Below, piece after piece: positions 15,032 through 32,000 of a stretch of DNA of 32,000 nucleotides. Under the pieces are notes generated by a model. It worked only from the letters and a program-made list of their open reading frames with translations. It was not told the origin of the DNA and made no database searches. The stretch lies in contig CP011211.1 in assembly GCA_001029695.1 (NCBI GenBank), positions 390,001-422,000 of the forward strand, written 5' to 3'. The stretch comes from Candidatus Saccharimonadota bacterium (GTDB taxonomy: Bacteria; Patescibacteriota; Saccharimonadia; Saccharimonadales; Saccharimonadaceae). The position numbers were made by a program, and so were the translations under genes. Position 1 is the stretch's first letter; every line of letters begins with the position of its first letter.

Positions 15032-15055
15032 GTATCTCCTAAGATAGTACAAGTA

Positions 15056-15072: not shown

Positions 15073-15084
15073 CACTAACAGTGA

Positions 15085-15113: not shown

Positions 15114-15198
15114 TCATTTTCTACAGTGCTTTTTATTTTGTACTCAAAATTGCACCTACAACTTTATTGTTCTTATGTAAATAAAGTAGTATAGAGTA

Positions 15199-15227
15199 TT
15201 GACATTATAAGCGTTTTGTGATAATAT
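15199..15227 (+). promoter_or_regulatory. near-consensus sigma70-type promoter driving the rightward operon
   Basis: TTGACA (15199-15204), a 17-nt spacer, then TAATAT (15222-15227). The first plausible long-ORF start is about 340 nt downstream. Confidence 0.6.
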
Positions 15228-15566
15228 GAATATATACGTCGATCTGAGGTGGAGACCGTAGGAGGCGCATGATCGTTAACAAATCAGATCATTACAGTAT
15301 ATGTACAGATCTGCGAACGTAGCAAAATGAGCATGAGCCCCAAACTCGACACTTTATACCTCCTACTCACTTTGCTGCGTTTGCAGCCTATGACTCAATA
15401 GTCATAGATTTGTATACCTACTTACTACATATTTCGCCACTTCAACTTGGAGTCAACATACTGCAGGTAGCAGAAACGCTGTCGATGGTATGTTGGCCCC
15501 AAGCGAGGGTACAACCATGAATTGAAATTGTTTCATTTCATGCGACTCCCTCAGAAAGGGGCGAAA

Positions 15567-16352
15567 ATGACTACAGTCCTGGAACAACCACAAGTAGCAC
15601 AACACGGGTCGACACCCAAGCGAAGTAATTCGCTTAAGGATGAGTTCGATATCGTGTTTTCCGGTCTTCAGAATGCCAATACCTGGACTGGCTCATTTGC
15701 CAGAGTTAACTTCTCTGGCAAAATGAATCAGCCAAGTGTTTCTTCAGAAGAAAGTCAGTGGTACAGGCAGATTGGCGAAGCATTGGTATCCGCGGGTGAC
15801 GTGATTGCGTCGCTCTGGGAGCATCTATGCAGCAGCTACAAAGCCTGGAAACGCAACGACCATGACGGCGTGATCGATAGCATGAAACTCTTTCTTGAGT
15901 TAACACGCGAACGAAACGTCGTCTTTCCGGAGCGTGTCTACTATAGTGCGCTGTCCATCAGTGGTCAGACGTTCCCTACGGGAGCCGAAGACCCGGAACG
16001 CGCACCATTCATGTGTGACGAGATCCAGCAATGCCTCGAGCTGCTCAACCAGCCCGTAGCAAAGCCTGATACTGACACACAGACACCCGCGGCACCACCT
16101 CAGAAAGCAGAGCCACCCACTCAAAAGCCTGTTGCATCACAGCCTTCCCAAAAGAAGGACTGGAAACAGCAAGCGCTTGAGTGGTGGCACGCCACCGTGA
16201 AGTGGTTTCGCGAGTTCACGCAGGCGATGACGTCGCCAAGCCAAAGAAAGATCATCGATGCTCACAATGAGCGTCTCCGAGCTCCGGCTCAGCAGACGGC
16301 TCAAAGTGATGCCGTCGCTCAACCAATCAAACGAGAGGAAGTGGCGAGATGA
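15567..16352 (+). CDS. hypothetical cytoplasmic protein, 261 aa, with a Pro/Gln-rich segment and a Trp-rich C-terminal helix
   Basis: I chose the start at ATG 15567 (MTTVLEQ) because SD-like AAAGGGG lies 5 nt upstream; the ORF-track TTG at 15522 is less likely. The stop overlaps the next start (ATGA at 16349-16352). I recognise no family. Confidence 0.6.
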   Translation: MTTVLEQPQVAQHGSTPKRSNSLKDEFDIVFSGLQNANTWTGSFARVNFSGKMNQPSVSSEESQWYRQIGEALVSAGDVIASLWEHLCSSYKAWKRNDHDGVIDSMKLFLELTRERNVVFPERVYYSALSISGQTFPTGAEDPERAPFMCDEIQQCLELLNQPVAKPDTDTQTPAAPPQKAEPPTQKPVASQPSQKKDWKQQALEWWHATVKWFREFTQAMTSPSQRKIIDAHNERLRAPAQQTAQSDAVAQPIKREEVAR

Positions 16353-18058
16353 TCGCACTAACGCTTATCATTGCTGTTCTACTGTCAATCCTGACAGTAC
16401 TCAGTATTCGGGGCGTCGCAGCCCGTGATGAAAACGGTAACAAAATTACCGTACACTCTGGTGCAACAAGCTTTACCGAAAGTGGTGAAGTTGCCAGTAA
16501 GTCTACGGGAAAGACCCTCCGCATCCCTCAGCCGATTGGACTACTCGCCTTTACGGCAGCAGCCCTTCTATGGGGAGCGGTCTACGGTCTGACTTACCCG
16601 CCGCTCGTATGGGCTGGCTACTTGCTCGTACTATTCATATGCGTAGCAATAGTCGTGTCCAACCCTTCGAAGCGAAAGACGGCCAACACCGGGATCGTAC
16701 TCATCGGAATCGTGACAATTGCCATGGTCTCGGTGATTATAGGGAGTACCGACAGCACTACCTCCGCAGCCTTTGCTCCGTCTTTTGACGGTAAAACGGT
16801 TCAGCTTTCAAGCGGTTTGTATGTTCCACTGCCTACCAGCAACGGAACCTCGACAACCGACTGCAAGCTTGTGGACATGAGTACCAATACGTCGTCGAAT
16901 TTCATCGAAGACGGATTGACCGGTACAACAGAACACATGGTTCAGCAGGTACTCGACAATGTCGAACGCTTGCCATTCCAGCTCTCGACTACACTCGTGA
17001 AGTTGGGTGAATGGGACAACGTCAACAACGTTGGACCGTTTGTCTACACCAACGAAGAAGGTCGACTTTGCCTCTCCAAGGAGGGCGAAGAAGGTGTCGT
17101 AAAGGTAAAGGCTCATTACGATGGCGCCGATATCTCGATCGAAACCATGAGCGAAAAGGTCGCCCTTGCAAGCTACACCACCGGATACAACGAATCTGGT
17201 GTTACCAGCTCACAGGGTATCGCTGCCAACAACCGTCAGATTCTCACTGTTCGCAAGAATGGTAAGGTTGACGAAAAGCAGCTCGCCTGCGCCAATACGC
17301 CGTTCCAAGGTAGCGCACCTGCTCCGCAGGGCCACACCAACGAACAGCCTCCGCGCAAGCCTCCGGCCCCACCAAAGCCGCCCAAGACGACACCTCCAGT
17401 GCCGCCGAAGACGACGACTGTTCCGCCGACGACCACGACTACCGTGCCGCCGACGACAACAACGACGCCGCCGCCCGTCTGCCCATGGAATCCGGAACTG
17501 CCCCCAGGGCATCCGGATTGCTTGAAGCCGAAGGATCCCGACGACACTCGTCCGACTGATGAACATCAGTCAGGTGGTCACACGACGACAGGACCGGAAG
17601 AAACGGTATTGCCAACTGAGGCAAATCCGATTGATCCGGAGATTGAACCGGGTACAGAACCTGAGATTCAGGCTCCCGGCGCGACTCAGCCAGAGACGCC
17701 CCTACCGATTCAACCCACTGAAGCACCCGTAGCTGGTGGCGAGGATTCTCCTAACACGGAGACAATCCCCGACCCCGACTATGTGCCCGCTCCAGTTGCA
17801 CCTGCCGCAGTTCCAGAACCTGCCTACACCCCTGCACCCGCAGAGGCGCCAGCAGCTTCCAGTGGCGAAGATACCCTACCCGCTTCCGAGCCCGTAGCTT
17901 CGTCTGATGCAGACATAGTTCCCATGGCGAAAGTCATTCGAAACTATGACGATACGCAGTCTACAAACAGTGCACTTGCTCTGCTCGGTGGAATCGCCGC
18001 TTTGGCGATCCTCATCGCAGCTCCGGCAGCTGTTCGTAGATTTCAGCATCACCAGTAA
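16349..18058 (+). CDS. hypothetical membrane protein, 569 aa: 4 N-terminal TM segments, an extracytoplasmic domain, a Pro/Thr linker, an acidic Pro-rich tail and a C-terminal TM anchor with a basic tail
   Basis: Hydrophobic stretches at about aa 2-20, 63-83, 86-104, 115-133 and 540-560. The linker reads PPKPPKTTPPVPPKTTTVPPTTTTTVPPTTTTTPPP. The end reads ALALLGGIAALAILIAAPAAVRRFQHHQ. GC content is noticeably higher than in neighbouring genes. Confidence 0.7.
   Translation: MIALTLIIAVLLSILTVLSIRGVAARDENGNKITVHSGATSFTESGEVASKSTGKTLRIPQPIGLLAFTAAALLWGAVYGLTYPPLVWAGYLLVLFICVAIVVSNPSKRKTANTGIVLIGIVTIAMVSVIIGSTDSTTSAAFAPSFDGKTVQLSSGLYVPLPTSNGTSTTDCKLVDMSTNTSSNFIEDGLTGTTEHMVQQVLDNVERLPFQLSTTLVKLGEWDNVNNVGPFVYTNEEGRLCLSKEGEEGVVKVKAHYDGADISIETMSEKVALASYTTGYNESGVTSSQGIAANNRQILTVRKNGKVDEKQLACANTPFQGSAPAPQGHTNEQPPRKPPAPPKPPKTTPPVPPKTTTVPPTTTTTVPPTTTTTPPPVCPWNPELPPGHPDCLKPKDPDDTRPTDEHQSGGHTTTGPEETVLPTEANPIDPEIEPGTEPEIQAPGATQPETPLPIQPTEAPVAGGEDSPNTETIPDPDYVPAPVAPAAVPEPAYTPAPAEAPAASSGEDTLPASEPVASSDADIVPMAKVIRNYDDTQSTNSALALLGGIAALAILIAAPAAVRRFQHHQ
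17399..17476 (+). repeat. imperfect tandem repeat (21-24 nt units, GTnCCGCCGAmGACnACnAC) encoding the VPP(K/T)TTT(T) linker
   Basis: Units at 17399-17419, 17420-17443 and 17444-17467, followed by CCGCCGCCC. Confidence 0.8.
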
Positions 18059-18285: not shown

Positions 18286-18314
18286 TTTACTTTTATATAA
18301 ATTTGTTATATAAT
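18286..18314 (+). promoter_or_regulatory. sigma70-type promoter of the LPXTG surface-protein gene
   Basis: TTTACT (18286-18291), a 17-nt spacer, then TATAAT (18309-18314). Downstream SD AAAGGAG (18353-18359) lies 6 nt before ATG 18366. Confidence 0.6.
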
Positions 18315-18365
18315 CTAATTAAATCCAATAAATCTGGCTCGTGGAGTGCCAGAAAGGAGTTCGTA

Positions 18366-19820
18366 ATGAAAAATATCATCACCGCACTTAAGCGGTCACC
18401 AAAGCGCGCAGCTAGCCTTTTGGTTGTTGCGTTTGCCGTCATGATCCCAGCAGGTCTACTTGCATGGGGTCCAGCGGATCGTCCAACTTATACATTTGAG
18501 AAGCCTGCTGACCATGTCACATTCAACTCAATCACAAACAACCCAAGCCATGGAGACGAGCGTAATTTTGTTCAGATCCGTGACACAAGCACAAATGCAA
18601 AGTTTGGCGAAGAGGTTGCACTAACACCAGGCAAAGAATACGAAGTATATGTATTCTTCCACAATAACGCAGCAAGCAATCTAAATGATGCCGAGCACAA
18701 CTACAAAGGTGTTGCACAAAATGCAACTATGCGAGTACAAATGCCCGGATCTGTAAAAGCAGGCGAAAAAGCACGCTTTACAGGAATCGTCGGAGCAGAT
18801 AACGCGCAACCTAAAGAAGTATGGGACGAAGCATACGGCACAAGTGCAAGTAATGTAGCACTTCGTTATGTACCTGATTCTGCAACAATCTACAGCAATG
18901 GCGCCGTAGACGGACAGAAGCTACCTAGTACACTTCTTACAAGCGGTACAAAGCTTGGATTCAACGCGCTTGACGGTAAACTACCCGGCTGTAATGAGTT
19001 TGCAGGATGGGTAAAATATCGATTTGTTGTTGATCAACCAAACTTTAGTGTCGAAAAGACTGTTTCAGCAGTAGGAAAAAATGCATTTGCAAAATCAGTT
19101 AATGCAAAAGCAGGCGAGCAAGTTGAATACAAAATCCAGTACAAGAATACTGGCACTACTCAACAAAACGACGTCATGATCAAAGATACGCTTCCAAAAG
19201 GTATCTCATACGTTCCAGGTACAACGTATGCTGCAACTGGAAAAAGCAACGGCCAGTACGAAAAGATTAGCGATAACGTTACAACTAGCGGCGTCAACCT
19301 AGGTTCATTCGCACCAAATGCAAATGCATATGTTAAATTTACCGCAAAGGTAACCGACAACAACAGTCTTGAAAACTGTGGTACTAACACTCTCGTCAAC
19401 AAGGCAACTGCTCAGACAAATAACGGCAGCAAAGACGACACCGCTAACGTCGTCGTTAGCAACGACTGCGCACCAGGCAACATCAGCGTCTGTGACCTTT
19501 CTACTAACAAGATCGTTACTATTAACGAAAAAGACTTTGATAGTAAAAAGCACTCAAAGAACCTTGCTGATTGTGCAGAGAAGTGCCCGATCCCTGGAAA
19601 AGAACACCTTCCAAAGAATAGTCCTGACTGTGCATACTGCCCAGTTCCAGGCAAAGAGCACCTCTCAAAGGACAGCAGCGATTGTAACGAAACTCCAGTT
19701 GAGCTGCCACAAACCGGTATCTCAGGTGGTGCAACAATCGCCGGCATCGGCCTTGTAACTGCTGGCCTCGGCTACGCACTATCAAGCCGTCGTATCCGCG
19801 ACATGCTTATTGGACAATAG
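18366..19820 (+). CDS. LPXTG-anchored surface protein with a DUF11-type conserved repeat domain and a Cys-rich stalk
   Basis: Start at ATG 18366 with a strong SD. Signal-peptide-like segment KRAASLLVVAFAVMIPAGLLAWG. DUF11-like segment FSVEKTVSA...GEQVEYKIQYKNTGTTQQNDVMIKDTLPKGISYVPGT. C-terminal sorting signal LPQTG plus hydrophobic stretch plus RRIRD. Confidence 0.85.
   Translation: MKNIITALKRSPKRAASLLVVAFAVMIPAGLLAWGPADRPTYTFEKPADHVTFNSITNNPSHGDERNFVQIRDTSTNAKFGEEVALTPGKEYEVYVFFHNNAASNLNDAEHNYKGVAQNATMRVQMPGSVKAGEKARFTGIVGADNAQPKEVWDEAYGTSASNVALRYVPDSATIYSNGAVDGQKLPSTLLTSGTKLGFNALDGKLPGCNEFAGWVKYRFVVDQPNFSVEKTVSAVGKNAFAKSVNAKAGEQVEYKIQYKNTGTTQQNDVMIKDTLPKGISYVPGTTYAATGKSNGQYEKISDNVTTSGVNLGSFAPNANAYVKFTAKVTDNNSLENCGTNTLVNKATAQTNNGSKDDTANVVVSNDCAPGNISVCDLSTNKIVTINEKDFDSKKHSKNLADCAEKCPIPGKEHLPKNSPDCAYCPVPGKEHLSKDSSDCNETPVELPQTGISGGATIAGIGLVTAGLGYALSSRRIRDMLIGQ
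19584..19685 (+). repeat. two copies (54-nt period) of the motif CP(I/V)PGKEHL(P/S)K(N/D)S(P/S)DC in the stalk preceding LPQTG
   Basis: Copy 1 at 19584-19631 and copy 2 at 19638-19685. The peptide is conserved while many codons differ synonymously. Confidence 0.8.
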
Positions 19821-19916: not shown

Positions 19917-20141
19917 ATGGCAAAGCAGAAAAAGAAACGAACTAAAGTATATAGCGGCGCAGATGCAGCAACTTCTCGTCCAACAATCACCCGTGTTCAA
20001 GCAGCGAATCGCAACAAAGTATCACAATGGTGGTTTGACCATAAGCGTATCGCTAAACCAGTCGCAATAGCGGCGATTATACTCCTCGTCATAATCATCG
20101 TTATCGTCGAGGTCGTTCGTCTGGCGACTGGCTCGGCGTAG
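19917..20141 (+). CDS. small basic membrane protein, 74 aa
   Basis: MAKQKKKRTKVYSG... followed by a TM segment (PVAIAAIILLVIIIVIVEVV). I chose ATG 19917 over the ORF-track TTG at 19893. The 3' end overlaps the convergent kinase gene by 41 nt. Confidence 0.5.
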   Translation: MAKQKKKRTKVYSGADAATSRPTITRVQAANRNKVSQWWFDHKRIAKPVAIAAIILLVIIIVIVEVVRLATGSA

Positions 20142-22326
20142 GAAAACTTGGCACTCTAAATCCAAAAGAACTGCCCGTCTCATCTTCAGCTTTAAATATC
20201 ATCGCACCCTTATGTGCGGTGATTACTTTTTTCGCGAGGAACAATCCTACGCCAGTACCATCAGGTCGCTGCTTGCGTGCGTTGGTTGCACGGAAGAATT
20301 TACTAAATAATCTCTCCTGCTCCTCAAGAGGTACGCCGATACCCTGATCCTTTACGAGGACGATCGCCTCATCATCGGTATATTCAAGCGAAACACTGAT
20401 CGTACTGCCACTGGGTGAATAATAAATAGCATTATCAATAAAGTTCATCACAACCTGTCCCACTTTTGACCGATCAATCTCCGTCTCGCGCCGAGCTACC
20501 GGCCCACTATAGACAAGTGTTTGCCCGTGGGCTTCGGCAAGCGCTCGAAGTGTATTTACCTCAGACCTCATCATTACATCCAAATCGACAGGATGAGCAT
20601 CGATGATAAACTTGCCCGTCTGTAGCCTTGATACCGATAAAAAGTCAGCGATAAGACGCACCATACGCTCACTACTTTCAAATGCCTCGCCAAGTAGATG
20701 GCGTTGTGTATCATTAATCTTTCCGGCATCCCCTTCCATCACCATACTCACGTAGCCTTTAATGCTCGTCAAAGGAGTACGAAGCTGATGTGATGCCATG
20801 CTTACAAATTCATCCTTCGCCTGGTCAAGCTTCTGAAGCTCTCGATTCGTAGCTCGTAGTCGAGTCGTTGCGACCGACACTTCATGCTTAAGCGTATCGT
20901 TAAATAATTTAATCTCCTCGTAGCGCAAGCTATTCTGAATCGCAAGCGCTAGCTCATCACTCATCATGCCGAGGAATCGAGTATCCTTCTCATCATAGCG
21001 TCGTCCACTTTTACGGTCACCGATAAAGATCGCTCCGATTCGCTCGTGCTGGACAAGCAGTTGCACAATCATAGCTGCATCAACATCCTCGATATACTGC
21101 TGCATATCATTGTCACCCATCGATGACACCCTATGTCCGTTCACCACTTGAGGCAGCTGATCGAGTAGATTTGCCACGACATCAAGCTGCATTGAACGCT
21201 GCTTGTGGGAAATCTTTCCAGGACCATGACCAAAATAACGAAGTTGACCATTATTGTCTGCCACATACACCGAGGTATATTCTGGCTCAAGCGCATCGTG
21301 AACAATATTGAGCGTCTTACGCACCAGGCGGCCAAGCTCGATCTCTTCAGACATGACATCTCCCACCTGCTGGAGTGTCTTGCTTGAGCTATAGTCATTC
21401 TGATAAAACAACCGATGAGTCAGCTGGTCAAAAAATCGCTTTACCGGTATATACGTCAGGGTCAACAAAAGCGCCACGACCACATACACCGCAGCATAGA
21501 CGTTATCAATGACCCGTCCGACAAAAAATAACTGTGTAATACCGAATATCGTCACGCTATAAATTACCGCAAGCGCACCAAGTAACAGTACATACGCCAT
21601 ACTCCTTGCGAGAGCTGCACGTAGATCAAACAACCCCTGCTGGATAATTGCATAAAATACTGAGATAACAAACAATACCGTAAATGGTGGTCCAGCCCAT
21701 ATCAGCTGATAGTTACCGAGTAGTGGGAGAAGCAGATTAAATAACGCCCCAAAAAATATAGCGACAACCACGCCTACGCACACCGTTCGCAGCTGATGTC
21801 GCAGATGAGCCTGATTGTGTCGCTTCGTCTGGCCATAGCTATACATAAACAACGACGTCGCGATAACCACATACACGACAAAGTATGCGACATAGATTCC
21901 ATATCCTAGAAGATTAAGTGTCGCCGTATTACCAGCCTGCCTATCAAGTGTCACCCCTTCGAGTAGCCCCCATGGAGCCACCGATACCACTATCGCTACA
22001 ATAAGACCAAGCAGAAGCATTGGCTGCACAAATGGCTTTATTTTTCGTCGATATGGAAAGCAAAGTGCAAGCTGTACAAGAAAATAAACGATCAAGGCGG
22101 CAATAACATAATACGAGTGAACAACGATACGCGCTATCGCCTCACTATACTGGAGTGAGAGGAACAAAGAGACGCCAACTCCCCAAAATCCTGCACATAT
22201 TGCAAGTAACGCGATCCACAGAGGTGATCGTTCCTGATGTTTCGAAGTAAGGACGACTCCGGCAAGTGCGAAGTTCGTCAATGCAATGCTAAACGACACC
22301 ACCAATGTTATCAATTGCAGATCCAT
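20101..22326 (-). CDS. sensor histidine kinase (multi-TM N-terminal sensor + GAF-like + HisKA + HATPase_c), paralog 1
   Basis: About 8 hydrophobic segments in the first ~300 aa. H-box SMASHQLRTPLTSIKGY, N-box MNFIDNAIYYS, G1 DQGIGVP, F-box/G2 FFRATNARKQRPDGTGVGLFLAKK. Confidence 0.9.
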   Translation of the reverse strand: MDLQLITLVVSFSIALTNFALAGVVLTSKHQERSPLWIALLAICAGFWGVGVSLFLSLQYSEAIARIVVHSYYVIAALIVYFLVQLALCFPYRRKIKPFVQPMLLLGLIVAIVVSVAPWGLLEGVTLDRQAGNTATLNLLGYGIYVAYFVVYVVIATSLFMYSYGQTKRHNQAHLRHQLRTVCVGVVVAIFFGALFNLLLPLLGNYQLIWAGPPFTVLFVISVFYAIIQQGLFDLRAALARSMAYVLLLGALAVIYSVTIFGITQLFFVGRVIDNVYAAVYVVVALLLTLTYIPVKRFFDQLTHRLFYQNDYSSSKTLQQVGDVMSEEIELGRLVRKTLNIVHDALEPEYTSVYVADNNGQLRYFGHGPGKISHKQRSMQLDVVANLLDQLPQVVNGHRVSSMGDNDMQQYIEDVDAAMIVQLLVQHERIGAIFIGDRKSGRRYDEKDTRFLGMMSDELALAIQNSLRYEEIKLFNDTLKHEVSVATTRLRATNRELQKLDQAKDEFVSMASHQLRTPLTSIKGYVSMVMEGDAGKINDTQRHLLGEAFESSERMVRLIADFLSVSRLQTGKFIIDAHPVDLDVMMRSEVNTLRALAEAHGQTLVYSGPVARRETEIDRSKVGQVVMNFIDNAIYYSPSGSTISVSLEYTDDEAIVLVKDQGIGVPLEEQERLFSKFFRATNARKQRPDGTGVGLFLAKKVITAHKGAMIFKAEDETGSSFGFRVPSFPTPSQSPDERPRR

Positions 22327-22360
22327 TCTTTTCCAGTATACTGCTTTTGCTTTGATTCAT

Positions 22361-23338
22361 CTATGCACGAATGCAATAAACTGCGTATACATTGTCATCC
22401 GGCAAAAGAATCGTTAGTTGGTTTGGCCCGAACCCAGCTTTCTCAATAAGATCTTTAACCTGATCAGATGTTCTTGGCAACACCCCCGGCCAACCAAGCC
22501 CCCTCTTATGAACCTGAAGCTGCGGGTGATCAGCATGCATATTTGAAAACACAAACGAACCGTCTTTTGGCATCGTTTCACGTATCTTTCTCAGCATCTC
22601 CACCGCCTCGCCCTCGTCAAGGTACTCAAAAAGCCCCATAGCCTCGATGATCTGCGGCTGAGCATCTACGACAAGTGCCTCGAGCACGCCTGGTCGCTTA
22701 AGGTCATGTTCGATCAAATGCACGCTGCTCTTTGCTATACCATACTCATGCGCAAGTTCATCTGCAAGCGCCAACGCGTTTTTGTCGATGTCACATAAAT
22801 AAAAATTCTTCTCACCATCAAACAGTCGCGCAGCATCAAACGTCGGCTGCCCACTGCCACATGCAATGCTCATCCAGCGAAGCTTTGCCTCGTCTTTATA
22901 GATACCCTGGAGGTACCATGACATCGCATAGGCACGCGATCGTAGACCTATAGCGTCACTCGAATGACGAAATAGATTACGGGTTATATAGTCAATCTTT
23001 TTTCCACTACGAAGCTTCTTTCGATCTGGGTTGTGCACATGAAATGTAGCAAACCCTCCAGGCATATACGCCGCCCATGCTCGCAGTGCTGGTGGCACAT
23101 AGATGATCTTGCGAATATGATTTTTGGGATGCTCAAAATCAAGATGGGGGCGCTTACGCAAGTACGCCTCCATAGCGCGAGTAAATAACGCAAACGTTTT
23201 TCGCTCCAGTAGATGTCGTTTTGTACTAAATCGGTCACTTGCATGAAGACGAATAGTCATGACTTCACCATTCAATGTTTCATCTAAAACTCGCAAGCTA
23301 AATTGATCACTCGTAAAATCTGCTGGCTTTTTGCTCAT
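22361..23338 (-). CDS. class I SAM-dependent methyltransferase with a ~150-aa N-terminal extension
   Basis: Motif I-like WMSIACGSGQPT, an acidic motif II residue in YLCDID, and post-I/III features (IIEAMGLFEYL). There is a 10-nt gap after the upstream kinase stop, with AAAGG 5 nt before the ATG. Confidence 0.75.
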   Translation of the reverse strand: MSKKPADFTSDQFSLRVLDETLNGEVMTIRLHASDRFSTKRHLLERKTFALFTRAMEAYLRKRPHLDFEHPKNHIRKIIYVPPALRAWAAYMPGGFATFHVHNPDRKKLRSGKKIDYITRNLFRHSSDAIGLRSRAYAMSWYLQGIYKDEAKLRWMSIACGSGQPTFDAARLFDGEKNFYLCDIDKNALALADELAHEYGIAKSSVHLIEHDLKRPGVLEALVVDAQPQIIEAMGLFEYLDEGEAVEMLRKIRETMPKDGSFVFSNMHADHPQLQVHKRGLGWPGVLPRTSDQVKDLIEKAGFGPNQLTILLPDDNVYAVYCIRA

Positions 23339-23348
23339 GAGAACCTTT

Positions 23349-25529
23349 CTATGCTTCGTTTATCTGTGTACGCTTTTTTGAAGTATCGACAGGTATCCTA
23401 AACCCGAACTTACTCCCCTTACCTTCAGTCGATGAAAAGATCATCTTACCACCATGTGCGGTGATTACTTTTTTCGCAAGGAACAATCCTACGCCAGTGC
23501 CGTCAGGTCGCTGTTTGCGTGCATTGGTTGCACGGAAAAACTTATGGAAAAGCTTCGCCTGCTCTTCGACTGGCACGCCAATTCCCGTATCGGCAACCAC
23601 AAATGCGAGTTCATCATCGATCTGTTCGAGACTCACTGTGATTGTCGTCTCTGGACGAGAGTAGTAGATAGCATTATCGATAAAGTTCATGATCACCTGG
23701 CGAACCTTTGCCTCATCAAGTTCGATAATTGGCAGGGTCTTCTTTGGTACCTTCACGCTTAACTTGATGTTGTGCGCTTCAGCGATGAGTCGTAGACTAT
23801 TCGTTTCCTGCTCAACAACACTTCCAAGATCTGTCGGGTGGTACTCAACAAGAAATTTCCCTGTTTGCAGGCGCGATACGTTCAGGAAATCACTAATAAG
23901 TCGCACCATACGCTCGCTACTGTTAAACGCTTCCTTCAATACAGTCTCTTGCTGTGGAGTGACGTTCCCCATGTCACCCTCGAGCACCATACTTAGATAG
24001 CCTTTTATACTTGTAAGCGGAGTACGTAACTGGTGTGACGCCATGCTAATGAACTCATCTTTCACTTCATCGATATGACGAAGCTGTGCGTTCGATGAAC
24101 GCAATTCTTTTGTCGCAACATCAATTCGCTGCTGCAGGGTTGCGTTGATTTCTTTAACCTCTTGGACAGATAGCGCGTTTTGAATAGCAACAATTAACTC
24201 ATCTGAAAGAGTTTCAAGCACCCTCACATCTCGGCTTACATAGCCTGCTCCCTTATGTTCACCTAAACAGAGATAGCCCAGCACGCCACCGCTATGGCGT
24301 AAAGGTAAAATGATAGCCAACCTATAAGATGTCATCATCCGTTTAATCGCCGTATCAATTTCTGGTTCATCACCAAGAATGACGGCGTCACCCCTCTCCT
24401 CTACATATACCTCAAGGCGTCGAGCATCCTCTATCGCAAGATACGTTCTGTTTTTAGTTCCAGATGACAGATAATGGCCAGCGGAATGGTATACAAAAAA
24501 ATATCCCTGCTCGGACTTTAGCGTACTCGCTAGCTTAACTGCAGCCCTCTCCAGGAGACCTCTAAGATCTGTCGTAGAAGCGAGTAGCCTACTCATCTCT
24601 GCGTAGAGTACATCCGTCTTGTAGTTATCTCTGTAGAAAAACTTATTTGTAATCTTATCAAAGAAAGATTTCACTGGCTGGAAAAAGAAAGCAAGAAGCA
24701 AAGCGGCAAAAGTATTTATAGGGCTTACGGCAGTCTCTCCGCTACCAGTAAATAAAATCCTAGACGCAGCATATGCTATCCCGTAGTAAAGCACCGAGAG
24801 AGTGGCTAAAACCCCTATATAGACAAGACTCCTGACAACGACAAAACGAAGGTCAAATAACCTATGGCGAATAACGCTATAGTAAATTCCAATCACTAAG
24901 AGAAGTACGGGAGAAACCCCAAACTCTGTAAATGCGAAGATACCCGTTAGCGACGGTAGGATGAATTGCATCGTTACAACCAATGGCAAGGACACCATCA
25001 GACTCAGTGCAATGACTTGAAGCTGGTTAAGCGCTGCGCCCTTCAGTTTACGCAAACCAATAATTAAAGTATAGAAGACTATCCCCATCATCATAAGTAA
25101 AGCAGCCCCATACAACAGAATAAGAGGACCGAAGATGACAGCGTATACATTTCCTTGCTGCTCTATACCTGCGACAGTCAAAGGAGTTGCAGCCAATAAA
25201 GCAATAATCCACAAGAAAGGTGTCATAAACTTTGTAAACTTTCGACTCAGTGACACACTCGCCAATTCGGAAACAAAATTCATCACCAGTATCATTGCTC
25301 CAAAAGCAGATGCGAATACTAAATAATTTGCTACCAGTGCAACACCGACAGACAGGTCAACGTTATTTGCTATGTGGTTAGAAGGGATCCATACCGCTAC
25401 CATAATAGCCAAAACTACAAATAATCTGTTCACATACTGCTTATAGCCACCCCTCAGGGAGACTAAAACTGCAAGCACCGTAAGAAGACCGACAATAATT
25501 ACATCAATAATCGCGTAGACACTCAGCAT
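23349..25529 (-). CDS. sensor histidine kinase (multi-TM N-terminal sensor + GAF-like + HisKA + HATPase_c), paralog 2
   Basis: Same architecture as 20101-22326. H-box SMASHQLRTPLTSIKGY, N-box MNFIDNAIYYS, G1 DTGIGVP, and the identical FFRATNARKQRPDGTGVGLFLAKKVITAH. Confidence 0.9.
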   Translation of the reverse strand: MLSVYAIIDVIIVGLLTVLAVLVSLRGGYKQYVNRLFVVLAIMVAVWIPSNHIANNVDLSVGVALVANYLVFASAFGAMILVMNFVSELASVSLSRKFTKFMTPFLWIIALLAATPLTVAGIEQQGNVYAVIFGPLILLYGAALLMMMGIVFYTLIIGLRKLKGAALNQLQVIALSLMVSLPLVVTMQFILPSLTGIFAFTEFGVSPVLLLVIGIYYSVIRHRLFDLRFVVVRSLVYIGVLATLSVLYYGIAYAASRILFTGSGETAVSPINTFAALLLAFFFQPVKSFFDKITNKFFYRDNYKTDVLYAEMSRLLASTTDLRGLLERAAVKLASTLKSEQGYFFVYHSAGHYLSSGTKNRTYLAIEDARRLEVYVEERGDAVILGDEPEIDTAIKRMMTSYRLAIILPLRHSGGVLGYLCLGEHKGAGYVSRDVRVLETLSDELIVAIQNALSVQEVKEINATLQQRIDVATKELRSSNAQLRHIDEVKDEFISMASHQLRTPLTSIKGYLSMVLEGDMGNVTPQQETVLKEAFNSSERMVRLISDFLNVSRLQTGKFLVEYHPTDLGSVVEQETNSLRLIAEAHNIKLSVKVPKKTLPIIELDEAKVRQVIMNFIDNAIYYSRPETTITVSLEQIDDELAFVVADTGIGVPVEEQAKLFHKFFRATNARKQRPDGTGVGLFLAKKVITAHGGKMIFSSTEGKGSKFGFRIPVDTSKKRTQINEA

Positions 25530-25537
25530 ACATATGC

Positions 25538-25543
25538 ATTATA
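25538..25543 (-). promoter_or_regulatory. -10 box TATAAT 8 nt upstream of the kinase-2 ATG (leaderless architecture)
   Basis: The minus strand reads gcgcTATAATgcatatgtATG. Confidence 0.5.
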
Positions 25544-25580
25544 GCGCTAAATCACTTTTTTGCCACAGCATTTGTTAAGT

Positions 25581-26516
25581 CTAGGCTGATCTACTATGCG
25601 CGTCTGTGCGCCTTTTTCTTGCATCATCCTGATAGTCAGCTTCTGGATTAAGGCCAAGCTTGGTTCGCGCAAAAGCCGCAGTAGCACCTAAGTAGTATGA
25701 CGCTCGCGGATATCGTATAACTCCCGATTTATTCGTATACGCATCCATAAATCGATATCTTGGAGCCCATGTTGGCTCCTTGCGATTATTCCCAATGCCG
25801 TACGTTAAGTGAAGAAATGCTTCTGTACTCCCCAATCCACTAGCCATATCAACCCCTTCGCTGATCGTCGGCAAAGGCGCACCACCTTGCGTAGCCAAAA
25901 GAGTTCTATAGTCACCATAAGGTGGAATATAAGGAACGCATCGACTAAGATCTACCTTCATTTCTGCAACCTCATCGAGTGGCATATCTTTTGGTATGCC
26001 CATAATCTTCTCAAAATCTCCACCCCTAAGAGATGTAGCGATACCCGCAAAACCAATATTCATCACAAGCAGTCCTGGAGTTTCCTGCTTCAGGGCCGTT
26101 CGAGCAAGCAACGTACCGATCTCAGGCTTCAAAAGCTCTGACTCATCTAGATATAAGTCTGCGCCATATAGAAATTCTTCAACGTTTTCCGAAATGACAC
26201 CATCATCATAAATCGTTACTTTTGGTGAAGCAGGTAGCGCCTCAACCATCTCCTTAAAAACCTCAGCTTTATTGCGACCTACGTTGGGTGTCGTCGCGGC
26301 AAGTACGCGGTTTGAATTCTCAGGCTCAAACGCCTCAGGATCCGCTACGCGGATCTCACCTACGCCCTTCATTGCTAGCTTATAGCCAAGTTGAAACCCG
26401 TCCCCGCCAACACCGGCGATTGCAACAGTAGAATTTATTAAAGCATCTTGCTCTGCCTCATTCCAAAAACCATAATTTCTAGAGAAGGCCGGATGATTTA
26501 TAGTATTTTTACGCAT
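25581..26516 (-). CDS. ThiF/MoeB/HesA-family (E1-like) adenylyltransferase-fold protein
   Basis: FSRNYGFWNEAEQDALINSTVAIAGVGGDGFQLGYKLAMKGVGEIRVADPEAFEPENSNR is a Rossmann GxGGxG motif in the ThiF arrangement. GRNKAEV matches the conserved Arg/Lys ATP-site region. SD GAGGAG lies upstream. Confidence 0.75.
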   Translation of the reverse strand: MRKNTINHPAFSRNYGFWNEAEQDALINSTVAIAGVGGDGFQLGYKLAMKGVGEIRVADPEAFEPENSNRVLAATTPNVGRNKAEVFKEMVEALPASPKVTIYDDGVISENVEEFLYGADLYLDESELLKPEIGTLLARTALKQETPGLLVMNIGFAGIATSLRGGDFEKIMGIPKDMPLDEVAEMKVDLSRCVPYIPPYGDYRTLLATQGGAPLPTISEGVDMASGLGSTEAFLHLTYGIGNNRKEPTWAPRYRFMDAYTNKSGVIRYPRASYYLGATAAFARTKLGLNPEADYQDDARKRRTDAHSRSA

Positions 26517-26589: not shown

Positions 26590-27342
26590 CTAGTGCCTTA
26601 TAGCATCTCCCCAGTACTGAAAAGTATTACTATTGGCTTTCATACCAGATAGTACATCAGGGTCTAACCTATTACTTAGCTCGTTCGTATCTATCATGAT
26701 GCCAAGATTATCGGTCTTATACTTTGGTATATACCGTGGATCTGCAACAACGCTAAACGGCACGCCATTTCTTTCGAGTTGCTCTTGTAGTTTTGTTTCC
26801 ACTACACCATAAGCTGGGCCTAAATCGTTTGCAATAACATGTGAAACGCCACGTGCAAATAATCTTGTTCTTAGATTATTTGCGTGAAAACGGTCATCGT
26901 GTCTCACTATTAGACGTGACACTTCTACTGCCTGACTAGGCGCCGGATTCTCGTCAAACTCATCTTTGAAAAATTCTTCAATTGGTAGCTTGGTCTCTTT
27001 ATCGTGTGTGTTTTTTTCAATAAGACGCATACACCCGACAACCGCAACGCGTGCTAATTGGTTCTCTAGTGCAACGATATGCACTGATCGCTCGTCGTCA
27101 ATATCAGTCTCGGTGCCGTCAACGCGCCTAGCATCTTCATCTAATATTTGCCTCTGGTCAATGTATACATTGGCTCGCAGTCGTAGATATGACTGAAAGA
27201 GTGCATCTTGGTCTAATGATGGATCGGTGTTGATACCAATAACTCCGATTGCGAATCTCTGATCAGGGTGGTGATCAAATATATCCGTCTCAACAGAAGG
27301 GGTAATATTGTGTGTCTTTATTGGATCGTAATTCATTACCAT
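26590..27342 (-). CDS. GNAT-fold N-acyltransferase of the autoinducer-synthase-like group (LuxI / N-acyl amino acid synthase-like)
   Basis: Motif series YLRLRANVY, GTETDIDDERSVHIV, VVGCMRLI, KLPIEEFF and AVEVSRLIV parallels the conserved blocks of LuxI-type and N-acyl amino acid synthase families. I set the start at ATG 27342, because the ORF-track GTG at 27366 sits inside the promoter -10 (GTGTATAAT). Confidence 0.65.
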   Translation of the reverse strand: MVMNYDPIKTHNITPSVETDIFDHHPDQRFAIGVIGINTDPSLDQDALFQSYLRLRANVYIDQRQILDEDARRVDGTETDIDDERSVHIVALENQLARVAVVGCMRLIEKNTHDKETKLPIEEFFKDEFDENPAPSQAVEVSRLIVRHDDRFHANNLRTRLFARGVSHVIANDLGPAYGVVETKLQEQLERNGVPFSVVADPRYIPKYKTDNLGIMIDTNELSNRLDPDVLSGMKANSNTFQYWGDAIRH

Positions 27343-27357
27343 AGGTTTATAGCTTTG

Positions 27358-27385
27358 ATTATACACTTTATTAAAAAAAAGTCAA
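27358..27385 (-). promoter_or_regulatory. near-consensus promoter of the acyltransferase/ThiF-like genes
   Basis: On the minus strand, TTGACT (27385-27380), a 16-nt spacer, then TATAAT (27363-27358) preceded by TG. Confidence 0.65.
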
Positions 27386-27434: not shown

Positions 27435-27806
27435 ATGACCAAAATTGCAATCATCGAAGACGACTCAGTCATTAACCAAATGTACCGTATGAAGTTTGAA
27501 GCCGATGGCTTCGACGTTCAGGTGGCAGACAATGGCAAGAGCGGTATCGAGATGGCAAAAACCTTCAAACCAGACATTATCTTGCTTGACCTTCAGATGC
27601 CAGAAATGACTGGAGACGAGGCGCTCGTACATATTCGCGGTAGTGACTGGGGTAAACAAATACCCGTCATCATCCTCACAAACCTTGGTGCAGAAGAATC
27701 ACCAAAGATCCTCAAGCAGCTTGATATACATAGCTATATAGTCAAAGCTGAACTTACCCCGAGCCAAGTTGTAGGACGAGTCAAAGAAGCACTCCACCTC
27801 AATTAA
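27435..27806 (+). CDS. single-domain (receiver-only, CheY-like) response regulator
   Basis: Acidic pocket EDD (aa 8-10), phospho-acceptor Asp in ILLDLQMP, Thr in IILTN, Lys in YIVKA. At 123 aa there is no output domain. Confidence 0.9.
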   Translation: MTKIAIIEDDSVINQMYRMKFEADGFDVQVADNGKSGIEMAKTFKPDIILLDLQMPEMTGDEALVHIRGSDWGKQIPVIILTNLGAEESPKILKQLDIHSYIVKAELTPSQVVGRVKEALHLN

Positions 27807-28700: not shown

Positions 28701-29249
28701 ATGGGAATTTTAACGTATCTAGCGCAAAGCTCGGACACTTCACTGTTTGACGATCAGCCATATACCTACACGTCAACATCGACAGCAACGCTCTCGCCTG
28801 AAGTGGCGTTCACTATCACAATTGTTGCATTACTATTTGCTGCGGCTTTATATGCCGTATCAGCGTATCTACTAAGTCGAATCTTTAAAAAAGCCGGTGT
28901 CGAGCAGTGGATTGCTTGGATACCCGTATACAACTCATGGAAACTACTCGAACTCGGGGGTCAAAAAGGCTTCTGGGCCGTGCTTGCATTCATCCCTATC
29001 GTCAACATTGCTTCTGCCGTGTTTATGTACATCGCAATGTACCACATAGGTAAAAAGCTACAAAAGGAAGACTGGTTTGTTGTTCTTGCAATCTTGGTAC
29101 CAATTGTATGGACTTTGTGGCTTGCGTTGGACGACTCTAAATGGCAAGGCGTATCCGACTCAACTAACGGCACTCCAGCCTTTCAGCCAGCAGCATCAGC
29201 TACCGCAACCGATGATAACGGTCAACCAAAACCACCGCTCGTACAATAG
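28701..29249 (+). CDS. DUF5684-like small membrane protein
   Basis: IFKKAGVEQWIAWIPVYNSWKLLELGGQKGFWAVLAFIPIVN is the characteristic DUF5684 core. There are 3-4 TM segments. Confidence 0.7.
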   Translation: MGILTYLAQSSDTSLFDDQPYTYTSTSTATLSPEVAFTITIVALLFAAALYAVSAYLLSRIFKKAGVEQWIAWIPVYNSWKLLELGGQKGFWAVLAFIPIVNIASAVFMYIAMYHIGKKLQKEDWFVVLAILVPIVWTLWLALDDSKWQGVSDSTNGTPAFQPAASATATDDNGQPKPPLVQ

Positions 29250-29263
29250 CTAAAATGCTATCT

Positions 29264-29305
29264 CCAAGAAAAAAGACTTATCTAACGATAAGTCTTTTTT
29301 CTTGG
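29264..29305. terminator. bidirectional terminator: 19-bp perfect hairpin shared by the convergent DUF5684-like gene and tRNA-Lys
   Basis: CCAAGAAAAAAGACTTATC-TAAC-GATAAGTCTTTTTTCTTGG. A/T tracts flank it on both strands. The right arm includes the tRNA CCA end. Confidence 0.8.
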
Positions 29306-29379
29306 AGGGCCAGGAGGGACTTGAACCCTCGACACCCTGCTTAAGAGGCAGGTGCTCTAACCAGCTGAGCTACTGGCCC
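29303..29379 (-). tRNA. tRNA-Lys (anticodon CUU), genomically encoded CCA
   Basis: Hand-folded cloverleaf: acceptor GGGCCAG/CTGGCCC, D-arm GCTC-AGCTGGTTA-GAGC, anticodon stem CCTGC/GCAGG with loop CTCTTAA, T-arm GAGGG-TTCAAGT-CCCTC, then T plus CCA. Total 77 nt. Confidence 0.93.
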
Positions 29380-29518
29380 GTATTGCAAAATAAATTGTAC
29401 TCTATTACTCGAGAAAAGGCAAGAGAAATCTCCCCCATTCCAGCAAAAGATTCATCATATTCTGTATATTCAATCGGCCCATACGATGCTATACTTAACC
29501 GTAAGAAGTTTGTTGTAT

Positions 29519-29992
29519 ATGAAGAATACTCACCCATCATCTGGTTTTACCGTTGTTGAGGTATTGGTTACCCTGGTGATCATATCGCTATTTATGGGGC
29601 TCTTTTTTCAGACCTACATGGCTATGGAATCACAACGTCTCGCAGTGCAGAAAACCGTCTTTGCTAGTAATATCGCTTATGCCAACTTGCGTAAATTCTC
29701 TGAACGCCCTGATTCAACAAAGCTCAGCTGCACCAACGACATGAACCTCGCTAGCAATCCAACCGCACCGGGTATCGAGATTGGCGGAAATAACACCAGC
29801 CCGAACACATTTGGGTTTGTTGGCGAAAATCTCACCACTTCACTTGGAACTGACGCTACTCAGCAGGTTCTTATCTTTGCACCAAATGGCTGTACGAGAT
29901 TTGCAGACATGCCGCTAAAAATAGTGTCTATAGTTAGATACGGACCCGCATCAAATCAGGAAGAGATCGCTCATGTATCATATGTCAAATAA
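29519..29992 (+). CDS. type IV pilin-like / pseudopilin protein (prepilin N-terminal cleavage-methylation motif)
   Basis: MKNTHPSSG|FTVVEVLVTLVIISLF has Gly-Phe at the cleavage site, Glu at +5 and a hydrophobic helix. I chose ATG 29519 rather than the ORF-track start at 29486. Confidence 0.8.
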   Translation: MKNTHPSSGFTVVEVLVTLVIISLFMGLFFQTYMAMESQRLAVQKTVFASNIAYANLRKFSERPDSTKLSCTNDMNLASNPTAPGIEIGGNNTSPNTFGFVGENLTTSLGTDATQQVLIFAPNGCTRFADMPLKIVSIVRYGPASNQEEIAHVSYVK

Positions 29993-30752
29993 AAATCGAT
30001 CCCAGGGTTTCACTATCGTCGAGCTGATTGTCGTAATATCAGTACTATCGATACTTATCGGCCTCATAGCGACAACGCTCCTAAATTTCTACCTATCAAA
30101 TATAGCCACGATCAACCGTACGACGCAGGCAAATGACGTCGCAAGCACGCTACAATCGATAGAAAAAAATGTATCGCTTGCGAGTAACTTCCTCAGCAAG
30201 ACATCTAGTTCGGCACTTGCAACACCACTTGGTCCAGAAAACTCTGCGATGCCTTGGATCTTCAAGACAGGTGAGCCGAACTACAACGTATTGATTGTCC
30301 AGAACTACGCAACAGATGGTACATCGAGCGACACAGCTCGGAAACTCATCTATTCATCTCCTGATTGTAAGTCGGATCCTGTCAAGAATACTCTGATCTA
30401 CTTCGTTGACACTTCTAGTACATTATATCGCCGCACTATCAGCGGACCCCCCTCTGTCTGCGGCGGCGCAATATCTCAAAAAACAACTTGCGCTCCAACA
30501 GCGACCTCATCACCACTATGTATCGGTGTAGACGCTGTCCTTTCCAGGAACGTATCAAAATTTCAGATACACTATTTTGCCAATAGCTCAGACCAGACAC
30601 CCGTGGACCCATACTCACAATCAGAGGTAACAGCCGCAGACACCATAAGAAACGCCAAAGCAATAAACATAACACTAGAGACATCCGAAAACATAAACGG
30701 TAAACTGAATAAGTACGCAAGTACTTTGCGGATTACAAGGTTGAACGAATGA
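29973..30752 (+). CDS. type IV pilin-like / minor pilin protein
   Basis: MYHMSNKNRSQG|FTIVELIVVISVLSILIGL is a prepilin motif with Glu +5. SD-like GGAAGAG lies 7 nt upstream. It overlaps the previous gene by 20 nt, and its stop overlaps the next start (ATGA at 30749-30752). Confidence 0.8.
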   Translation: MYHMSNKNRSQGFTIVELIVVISVLSILIGLIATTLLNFYLSNIATINRTTQANDVASTLQSIEKNVSLASNFLSKTSSSALATPLGPENSAMPWIFKTGEPNYNVLIVQNYATDGTSSDTARKLIYSSPDCKSDPVKNTLIYFVDTSSTLYRRTISGPPSVCGGAISQKTTCAPTATSSPLCIGVDAVLSRNVSKFQIHYFANSSDQTPVDPYSQSEVTAADTIRNAKAINITLETSENINGKLNKYASTLRITRLNE

Positions 30753-32000
30753 GACTATATACCATACTTCAAAAGAACATTGACAGGCACGAACCTAGTC
30801 GTGGCTTTATATTGCCTGTCGCCATCGTACTATCCTTGGCTATAATGACCGTAAGTATCACTGCGCTCCAGCTCATCAGCCAAGCTAGCGCACGACAAAG
30901 TGAGGCCTACGCTCAGACACTTGCCGCCGAAGCGTCTCAAGCAGGGATCAAACATGCAAATGCTTGTATCGAACGAGGGGTGGCAACATGGGCTACCCCG
31001 CTCAAACCAGGACTTGATTGCAGCGGCACTCCGTCAGGCGCCCCCGACACCCTAACGACTCTTCGTGACTGGACTACCAGCTACAGTGTCACAATTAGCG
31101 GAGGAACCATAAACTCCGTGGGAATTGTAAACAGAGTACGAAGCGACGGCATTTCGATAGTAAGTACTATCGATAAACAGCTCAAGTCAGACACCGTAAC
31201 CGGAAGCTCATCGGTAGCCGTTGCTGCGCCCGACCCTAATCGACAATTTAGCTCTATAGGCGCAGGCTTTGAACATACCTGCGCTGTTTCGAGTGGAAAA
31301 GTATTTTGCTGGGGACAGAACAACGTAGGCCAGCTCGGTATCGGCATCACTGGAGGTACCTATACTACACCACAAGAAGTAAAAGGCGGACTGCTTGGCA
31401 AACGAGTCACCAGCATTGCACTCGGCTCTAATCATACCTGTGCTCTCGCGGAAACCATACCTCAAACAAGTACAAATGAGGTGTGGTGCTGGGGGCTTAA
31501 TACATACAGCGGCCTCGGCTCCAACGGCACCACTAATCAAAATGAACCGAGACGTGCACTTGGAGATATTAGTGGTAAACGCGTCATGAAAATCGCACTC
31601 GGCACAGGAGTCGAAGGCAATAACGCGTGCGCCATAACAGACGAGTCAGCCGATGCAGGCACGCGCGTAGCTCGAAATCTATACTGCTGGGGAAAGAATG
31701 GACAGGGACAACTAAGCACAAACAGCATCACCACTTTTGCAACCCCTAAGCGCTCCACTGACTATGCTCAATTGAATAGAAGCTTCGTAGATATAGCGAT
31801 GGGCAATAGCCACGCTTGCGGCATTCTAGCAAATGGAGACATGTACTGTTGGGGCGCAAATAGACCGTCAGGCGGTAGCGGTCTATTTGGGACGTTCGGC
31901 ATAGGCAAGGAAGACGACGATCCAAAGTACTCTACTATAACCTGGCGATACCCCCGACAGGCTATAGATACAAGTGAATTTGCATTTGGTAGCAACTTCG
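30749..32000 (+). CDS. PilX-like N-terminal pseudopilin helix fused to RCC1 (beta-propeller) repeats; partial, continues beyond window end
   Basis: My own translation (open to the window edge, so absent from the ORF track) reads MRLYTILQKNIDRHEPSRGFILPVAIVLSLAIMTVSITAL.... It is followed by at least 4 RCC1-type blades: HTCAVSSGKVFCWGQNNVGQLG, HTCALAE..VWCWGLNTYSGLG, NACAITDES..LYCWGKNGQGQLS and HACGILANGDMYCWGAN. Confidence 0.8.
   Translation, partial: MRLYTILQKNIDRHEPSRGFILPVAIVLSLAIMTVSITALQLISQASARQSEAYAQTLAAEASQAGIKHANACIERGVATWATPLKPGLDCSGTPSGAPDTLTTLRDWTTSYSVTISGGTINSVGIVNRVRSDGISIVSTIDKQLKSDTVTGSSSVAVAAPDPNRQFSSIGAGFEHTCAVSSGKVFCWGQNNVGQLGIGITGGTYTTPQEVKGGLLGKRVTSIALGSNHTCALAETIPQTSTNEVWCWGLNTYSGLGSNGTTNQNEPRRALGDISGKRVMKIALGTGVEGNNACAITDESADAGTRVARNLYCWGKNGQGQLSTNSITTFATPKRSTDYAQLNRSFVDIAMGNSHACGILANGDMYCWGANRPSGGSGLFGTFGIGKEDDDPKYSTITWRYPRQAIDTSEFAFGSNF

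Follow-up and report, generated by a model that had tools for sequence, protein, structure and literature searches.

A Saccharibacteria minor-pilin operon ending in a predicted pilin with tandem RCC1 propellers

How ultrasmall epibionts of the Saccharibacteria and in the Candidate Phyla Radiation (CPR) recognize and attach to their hosts is an open question, and the leading candidate at present for an adhesin that recognizes the host at long range is the propeller pilin of the PilX2 type. The closest described system is type IV pilus (T4P) locus three of Nanosynbacter lyticus TM7x, which comprises pilA2, pilX2, pilW2, pilV2 and pilZ2 (Grossman et al., PMC11623550, bioRxiv 2024; PMC12206443, ISME J 2025). 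TM7x PilX2, listed as TM7x_02980 in the published supplement and missed by TXSScan and BLAST, combines a seven-bladed RCC1 propeller with a non-canonical signal peptide (PMC12206443). Deletion of pilX2 lowers host binding from 10.6% to 4.6%, much like deletion of pilA2 or pilB2, and the authors suggest that PilX2 serves the thin T4P-2 filament as its adhesin (PMC11623550, PMC12206443). T4P operons including PilD were reported in 62 of 65 Saccharimonadia bins (PMC12592800). Comparable modular pilins, PilB, which carries a vWA module, and PilC, which carries a lectin module, are described for Streptococcus sanguinis in the passages of Raynaud et al. used here (PNAS 2021, PMC8179133), with the proposal that such proteins cap filaments and serve as adhesins. 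Here we analyse an operon of three open reading frames, ORF1 to ORF3, in a stretch of 32,000 nucleotides from a Candidatus Saccharimonadota bacterium (contig CP011211.1, positions 390,001 to 422,000 of the forward strand, assembly GCA_001029695.1), referred to below as the window.

We suggest that ORF1, ORF2 and ORF3 form the minor-pilin set of a saccharibacterial type IV pilus, as the counterpart of pilV2-pilW2-pilX2, and that the propellers of ORF3 bind a host bacterium from the pilus tip. We put the probability of this reading at about three in four.

The operon and its counterpart in TM7x

ORF3 runs past the end of the window. Contig DNUC01000003.1 (GCA_003508055.1, Candidatus Saccharibacteria) is identical to the window across the 12,515 bases that were compared, and supplies the complete gene (976 aa, 11264-14194), which is thus far larger than the part visible at the time of a preliminary description of the window made from its letters. 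The three genes are arranged as follows; L025 is a TM7x-type contig introduced below.

29516 to 29992, + strand: ORF1, PilV2-like minor prepilin, 158 aa; matches N_methyl and, by BLASTP, L025
29973 to 30752, + strand: ORF2, PilW2-like minor prepilin, 259 aa; matches N_methyl and, by BLASTP, L025
30749 to 32000 and beyond, + strand: ORF3, PilX2-type modular minor pilin (predicted); first 417 of 976 codons in the window

The 20-nt overlap of ORF1 with ORF2, and the ATGA at 30749-30752 shared by the ORF2 stop and the ORF3 start, which indicates translational coupling, bear out the three overlapping or coupled genes of the preliminary description. Its coordinates hold to within a few bases, with the start of the first gene corrected from 29519 to the ATG at 29516 or at 29486; the latter gives a 168-aa form identical to the deposited HBH77742.1. 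ORF2 is identical to AKM80330.1/HBH77743.1, and ORF3 falls in the 90%-identity cluster of AKM80331.1/HBH77744.1 (976 aa), which GenBank labels only as "hypothetical protein" or "chromosome condensation regulator RCC1".

The products of ORF1 and ORF2 are ordinary prepilins of the G↓FTxVE type with Glu at position +5 of the mature protein (the arrow marks the cleavage junction), as had been claimed from their motifs. Read from the translation, ORF1 has the leader MKNTHPSSG and the mature start FTVVE, and ORF2 the leader MYHMSNKNRSQG, ending NRSQG, and the mature start FTIVE. Against Pfam N_methyl (PF07963, cut-off 21.2 bits) they score 25.1 and 29.0 bits, and against TIGR02532 (cut-off 16.3) 19.6 and 21.9 bits; a profile of ORF1 also matches type IV pilins of solved structure by way of the N-terminal helix. 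These prepilin calls, like the RCC1 call for ORF3 given below, rest on hidden Markov model (HMM) scores over curated thresholds and not on chance motifs.

The connection to TM7x was made through L025, a metagenome contig recovered with the PilX2_Up_F primer of Grossman et al. as an exact pattern. L025 carries murB, three genes for proteins of 163, 155 and 275 aa, an RCC1 protein of 576 aa that begins about 0.5 kb after the primer site, a 141-aa pilin, which is the length of PilA2 in the published table, and glyA on the opposite strand. In BLASTP comparisons ORF1 matches the 155-aa protein (E 2e-12, 30% identity), ORF2 the 275-aa protein (E 2e-12 over 234 aa) and ORF3 the 576-aa protein, with 29% identity over 393 aa (E 9e-31) and collinear from Gly19; the N-terminal module of ORF3 alone gives E 1.8e-11. 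The gene order is V-W-X-murB-A-glyA(-) in the window genome and murB-Z-V-W-X-A-glyA(-) in L025, with the TM7x order taken from the published supplement. Because of this collinear homology and synteny, ORF1-ORF2-ORF3 is, as judged from sequence, the counterpart of pilV2-pilW2-pilX2 of T4P locus three.

The same arrangement recurs more widely. Related contigs encode a FimT- or major-pilin-like protein (164-177 aa), a PilV-like protein (136-154 aa), a PilW-like protein (273-275 aa) and a PilX-RCC1 protein (568-592 aa), and the order (FimT-like)-PilV-PilW-PilX-RCC1 is kept in three contigs of Saccharibacteria type (L017, L018, L019) as well as in L025. ORF2 orthologs of 273-275 aa hold the same operon slot in L017 and L018, and the ORF3-type gene is the last and largest of the minor-pilin operon in the window and in all four of these contigs. 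L018 (10001-13449) and L019 (7784-11232) each hold a tandem pair of PilX-RCC1 paralogs of 568 and 579 aa, both with a GFALPT module of their own; in effect, the putative adhesin is duplicated inside one operon.

On DNUC01000003.1 the region 3' of ORF3 holds murB, a 154-aa prepilin, glyA on the opposite strand and aroA. The 154-aa gene, which lies 1.4 kb downstream of ORF3 after murB, is major-pilin-like, with the junction KG↓FTIVELLIVIVVIGILAAI and a C-terminal pair of cysteines. Directly upstream of the operon is a tRNA-Lys(CTT) gene (29303-29379, minus strand), at the place where related loci have murB and a FimT/PilZ2-like gene; murB lies here downstream of pilX, and its displacement, with the tRNA in its stead, suggests a local rearrangement at the tRNA. 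Scans for promoters and terminators in window positions 29200-29700 and in DNUC01000003.1 positions 14100-16200 gave nothing above background on the + strand.

The predicted pilin module and propellers of ORF3

The part of ORF3 within the window divides into five elements.

30749 to 30805, + strand: leader, a putative class III (prepilin-type) signal peptide; aa 1-19, basic, ending at Gly19
30806 to 30973, + strand: alpha-1 helix, aa 20-75; AlphaFold2 helix at 22-75, predicted local distance difference test (pLDDT) 92-97
30974 to 31198, + strand: predicted pilin head, aa 76-150; invariant W81, L85, C91 and G93, then four predicted strands
31199 to 31243, + strand: Ser/Thr/Ala-rich linker, aa 151-165, joining the pilin module to the first propeller
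31244 to 32000, + strand: first propeller, aa 166-417, with RCC1 blades 1-4 complete and blade 5 in part; PF00415 and PF13540

In translation the N-terminus reads MRLYTILQKNIDRHEPSRG↓FILPVAIVLSLAIMTVSITAL, with HEPSRG↓FILPV around the junction. A short basic leader that ends in Gly is followed by Phe and a hydrophobic helix, as in prepilins, and the Glu at +5 is replaced by Val; the preliminary description had likewise placed a hydrophobic pilin-like helix without Glu+5 at the start of a third gene from 30749. The N-terminal half of the helix (FILPVAIVLSLAIMTVSITAL) is hydrophobic, and beyond it come the conserved motif A-x-x-A-A-E-(A/S)-G and Cys73. In the full-length AlphaFold2 model (42-sequence alignment, mean pLDDT 77.6) a helix spans 22-75, four strands lie between 103 and 148, and the linker falls below 50 at 150-163. 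The N-terminal 165 residues modelled alone (51 sequences) give the same helix-plus-sheet "lollipop" at pLDDT 88, with the strands of the head at 103-105, 108-117, 120-130 and 137-148 (pLDDT 93-98). Profile alignment with hhalign brings the G↓F of the ORF3 family onto that of bona fide N_methyl pilins. It is therefore defensible to call the N-terminus type IV pilin-like, with its Gly-Phe in register with a real cleavage site, and to regard cleavage there as putative.

A large family is defined by this N-terminal module. The entire architecture of ORF3 recurs in nine homologs of 535-606 aa, and an exhaustive HMM search with the module alone found clusters (50% identity) numbering 880 at E up to 1e-3, 324 of them at E up to 1e-30; a word-indexed search with the N-terminal profile gave 7 proteins. 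The leader has a median length of 12 aa. Position -1 is Gly in 135 of 154 family members and Ala in the other 19, position +1 is Phe in all 154, and Leu at +3 and Pro at +4 are each found in 152. Thr occupies +5 in 127 of the 154, with Val, Ala or Ser in the rest and Glu in none. The start G/A↓F-A-L-P-T is followed by Q-Y-Y ... A-x-x-A-A-E-(S/A)-G, and two cysteines and one tryptophan are invariant in the alignments.

What the module carries is more variable. RCC1 blades are present in 89 of 125 long representatives and a doubled propeller in 6 of them; other members bear a ricin-B lectin inserted in RCC1, phage tail-collar/Gp10_C, FG-GAP or glycine-rich cargo (P0155, P0161, P0166, P0169, P0178, P0216, P0164, P0225, P0263). 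Such interchangeable cargo, lectin-type and other, is as expected for a carrier of binding modules. Members of the RCC1 type end in a tail past the last blade (...S-x-F-L-x-P-x4-[YF]-[IL]-[YF]), and the final residue is aromatic in 92 of the 125 long representatives; the tail is encoded at DNUC01000003.1 14155-14191 and at about 4625-4663 of L025, where it ends ...NRYIY, and in ORF3 it is modelled at low confidence.

RCC1 propellers were also seen on canonical Glu5 prepilin N-termini (G↓FTIVELL..., Pfam N_methyl) in three proteins (P0051, P0079, P0086), which is a second, independent route by which a propeller came to be placed on a pilin. Another protein from Saccharibacteria (P0047) joins RCC1 to an atypical G↓DTIVE N-terminus, for which an N_methyl match was not recorded. 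As a tentative and rather doubtful extension of these findings, the G/A↓F-A-L-P-T module might be a Saccharibacteria-wide "carrier pilin", distinct in sequence, whose cargo is swapped or duplicated to set host range, with Pro at +4 and the lack of Glu5 marking a distinct route of processing or priming. If so, the tandem-propeller ORF3 would be a bivalent or extended-reach adhesin.

The window protein matches PF00415 at E 8.5e-25 and PF13540 at E 1.5e-25, and its blades each show H-x-C-A ... C-W-G-x-N-x-x-G-Q-L-G. At least four RCC1-type repeats had been proposed, and four complete blades and part of a fifth are present in the window. In the full-length protein, parsing by the C-W-G motif yields 14 blades, which we read as two tandem seven-bladed propellers; Pfam finds 11-12 RCC1 repeats (PF00415 in 11 stretches, E 3.5e-96), and the score against the RCC1-like domain PF25390 is 382.8 bits (cut-off 150). 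In Foldseek searches the propellers align with UVR8 (TM-score 0.91, E 2e-33), and other RCC1-like domains are matched as well. The blades of the model run to the C-terminus, and residues 428-529 are poorly defined. A search of genome contigs with the 417-aa fragment returned only generic RCC1 proteins of unrelated phyla.

We considered whether the 976-aa ORF3 might be a recent fusion of tandem paralogs like those of L018. Between the two propellers, however, identity is only 31%, and neither is near a particular L018 paralog, so that such a recent fusion is unsupported. The blades (aa 166-976) hold two cysteines each, one in H-x-C-A and one in C-W-G, with 32 cysteines in the whole protein, and Gly, Ala, Ser and Thr make up 42% of its residues; this composition fits an extracytoplasmic and possibly disulfide-stapled propeller like that of the ACR4 ectodomain.

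Assembly, host binding and alternative readings

In the type II secretion system (T2SS), GspK, which lacks Glu5, sits on top of the GspI-J-K tip complex. By analogy, a priming complex of the operon's three pilin modules would form on the inner-membrane platform and finish up at the filament's distal end, with ORF3, the largest and Glu5-less subunit, topmost; the GspI-J-K arrangement is discussed in passages of Raynaud et al. (PMC8179133). The two RCC1 propellers would then project from the pilus tip, bind a surface ligand on the host bacterium and tether the epibiont. The ligand is probably a glycan, as suggested by the lectin-type cargo of paralogous family members and by the sugar-inhibition data for TM7x (PMC12206443). 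We infer cleavage by prepilin peptidase, the tip location and the ligand from these comparisons, and the role in host binding is taken from the literature, which reports it for the TM7x homolog. That the gene is a host-attachment determinant of an epibiont, as the preliminary description proposed, is supported by the Saccharibacteria origin of the sequence, the homology and synteny with pilV2/W2/X2, the need for TM7x PilX2 in efficient host binding and the pilin-type N-terminal helix and sheet predicted by AlphaFold2.

Several results weigh against this assignment. Homology to TM7x PilX2 was inferred via L025 with its exact primer site, and not from the TM7x record itself. ORF3 gave no match to N_methyl in a Pfam scan at E up to 1 and no match whatever among NCBIfam models, TIGR02532 included. 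In Foldseek searches of its N-terminal model against the PDB, no solved pilin was significant (best E 0.19), and the T2SS pseudopilus model (XcpGHIJK) reached E 1.4; the N-terminal profile found no match among PDB sequences at E up to 10. The pilin fold is thus predicted from topology and not structurally confirmed. Pilus machinery genes are absent from the 32-kb window, and the set of the source genome was not located. For TM7x, SignalP found no PilD site in PilX1 or PilX2 and the pilX2 deletion strain still makes thin pili (PMC12206443), so that its incorporation into the filament and its tip location are putative there too.

The place of ORF3 among PilX proteins also needs qualification. 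RCC1 profiles match ORF3 strongly, whereas PilX_N (PF14341) has no Pfam match in the window protein, and scans of the family, which likewise tell against the assignment, found it in 1 of 10 members at E 0.3 and in 1 of 42 at E 0.039. By hhalign the N-terminal module aligns with six genuine PF14341 proteins at a probability of 71.5% (E 3.6e-5), Gly-1 and the A-A-E-A motif being paired, and the PF14341 proteins likewise have no Glu5. In control comparisons the operon's own PilV-like prepilins reach 73.2%, with G↓F on G↓F, and the PilW-like prepilins 11.8%. Since the PilV-like control scores the same as PF14341, membership in PilX_N is not supported and is not claimed. In other words, the name PilX is defensible for ORF3 by virtue of its operon position and missing Glu5, and not of membership in PF14341; of the proposed PilX/GspK-type minor pilin, the last, largest and Glu5-less gene stands, and the PilX_N match does not.

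The missing HMM-detectable N_methyl or PilD-type signal, the SignalP result for TM7x PilX1 and PilX2, the loss of Glu5 throughout the family, the thin filaments of the TM7x deletion strain and the lack of a significant Foldseek match to pilins would all be accommodated if ORF3 were a membrane-anchored surface adhesin, with an uncleaved signal anchor and its propellers on the envelope, or if it primed assembly without leaving the membrane. We think this unlikely. A plain anchor has no need of the invariant Gly or Ala at -1, the Phe at +1 and the short basic leader, and the hhalign register is that of true prepilins. The ORF3-type gene stands last in a minor-pilin operon at all loci examined, the predicted helix-plus-sheet head is conserved, and the binding defect caused by deletion of pilX2 in TM7x equals those of pilA2 and pilB2 (PMC12206443). 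A different account of the N-terminus, as a Sec signal peptide cut by signal peptidase I, for instance after the ASA at 46-48, to release a soluble or wall-anchored RCC1 protein without a link to pili, has in its favour the A-S-A tripeptide behind the hydrophobic stretch of the window protein. Across the family, however, positions +26 to +30 are S/A, V/I, R, T/S and A/S, so that A-x-A is not kept after the hydrophobic stretch, which argues against such processing and led us to reject it. The conserved sequence G↓F-A-L-P lies at the start of the hydrophobic stretch, with no site at its end; the stretch itself, about 25 residues within a 54-residue helix, is too long for a Sec h-region, and the gene stands in a minor-pilin operon. 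This account is exceedingly improbable.

The operon might instead specify a competence (Com-type) pilus or a T2SS-like pseudopilus, whose propellers would bind DNA or a secreted substrate, compare Thermus ComZ. RCC1 proteins bind chromatin in eukaryotes, a point for this possibility. Modular minor pilins can bind DNA, ComZ being an example in the passages of Raynaud et al. (PMC8179133), and ORF1 and ORF2 show weak N-terminal matches to GspG/H/I and ComG models. These NCBIfam matches, however, span only the shared N-terminal helix and fall far below the cut-offs. T4P-2 pilin mutants of TM7x, the pilX2 deletion among them, retain wild-type competence (PMC12206443), the locus is syntenic with T4P locus three, and members of the family carry lectin-type modules. 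We therefore regard a Com-type or T2SS-like role as very unlikely, and prefer the host-binding minor-pilin set set out above.

The pilin-propeller architecture and its role have already been published for the TM7x homolog, so that the view of ORF3 as a pilin bearing a propeller is right but not new. What is new here is modest: the propeller is doubled, the N-terminal family is large and its motif near-invariant, its cargo is diverse and the C-terminal tail is conserved. In the literature searched, no other paper joins Patescibacteria, pilin and propeller. Searches with the conserved pilin module could be a way to find candidate host-range determinants in genomes across the Saccharibacteria, and a family-wide survey may be worthwhile.

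The remaining genes of the window are housekeeping and signalling genes. At 26590-27366 on the minus strand lies a gene for a 250-258-aa protein with Pfam matches to Autoind_synth (PF00765, LuxI-type) and Acetyltransf_5, and a LuxI-like acyltransferase is unexpected in a reduced Saccharibacteria genome. Its neighbours (20101-26516 and 27435-27806) encode two GAF-HisKA-HATPase kinases, a methyltransferase, a ThiF-like protein and a stand-alone response regulator. Further away, at 13211-14257 (minus strand), 15522-18058 (plus strand) and 18303-19820 (plus strand), are genes for a GH5 cellulase-family protein, two adjacent ORFs of 276 and 569 aa that have no Pfam match, and a DUF11/CLIPPER-repeat protein, which may be further surface or host-interaction genes.

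Comparison with known systems

Like GspK of the T2SS and the core minor pilins PilX/PilK, ORF3 is the largest, Glu5-less and last-encoded component, with an extra domain attached, and it shares with PilX_N proteins the A-x-A-A-E-A-like motif behind the hydrophobic helix aligned by hhalign. The extra domain of GspK is inserted into the sheet, whereas the propellers of ORF3 are appended. With PilB and PilC of S. sanguinis, as presented in the passages of Raynaud et al., it has in common a small pilin module, a short linker and a bulky binding module; the S. sanguinis modular pilins show the IPR012902/N_methyl motif with Glu5, both of which ORF3 lacks. Measured against the definition of a modular pilin given there (IPR012902 plus an extra domain), ORF3 has the extra domain and no detected N_methyl signature; judged by the predicted structure, its architecture is modular. 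The RCC1 propeller is not among the modules named in those text passages, Dataset S1 and Fig. 8 of that paper lying outside the comparison.

PilY1/PilC of Pseudomonas, Neisseria and Myxococcus offers another parallel, drawn by Grossman et al. (PMC12206443) and in passages of Raynaud et al. (PMC8179133), as a beta-propeller at the pilus tip that acts with minor pilins and has a role in adhesion. PilY1 is a non-pilin with a propeller of another family (IPR008707), whereas that of ORF3 is covalently fused to the pilin module; Pfam scans of the ORF3 fragment and of the full-length protein gave families of RCC1 type only and no PilY1/PilC-type propeller domain. In repeat sequence and fold the propellers correspond to the RCC1-like propellers of UVR8, the HERC2 RCC1-like domain (RLD), BLIP-II and the ACR4 ectodomain, the last two of which are among the PDB sequence matches. 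Unlike this group, ORF3 is bacterial, predicted to be extracytoplasmic and pilin-fused, and has two-cysteine blades in tandem propellers.

The closest known system is TM7x PilX2, a protein of the same phylum whose gene holds the same slot, behind those of PilV2 and PilW2 type and close to murB, pilA2 and glyA. Both proteins lack Glu5 and an HMM-detectable prepilin signal, and both end in a hydrophobic/aromatic C-terminal tail. They differ at the N-terminal motif, which is G↓FILPV in ORF3 (G↓FALPT in its family) and G↓YSLVL in the TM7x type, and in the surroundings of the gene, since the window has a tRNA-Lys in place of the FimT-like pilZ2 upstream and murB between pilX and the pilA-like gene. 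The TM7x-type PilX2 has 576 aa and one seven-bladed propeller, whereas ORF3 has 976 aa and 14 blades. TM7x is an oral epibiont; the window locus would represent the same device in an uncultivated environmental lineage, with the propeller doubled.

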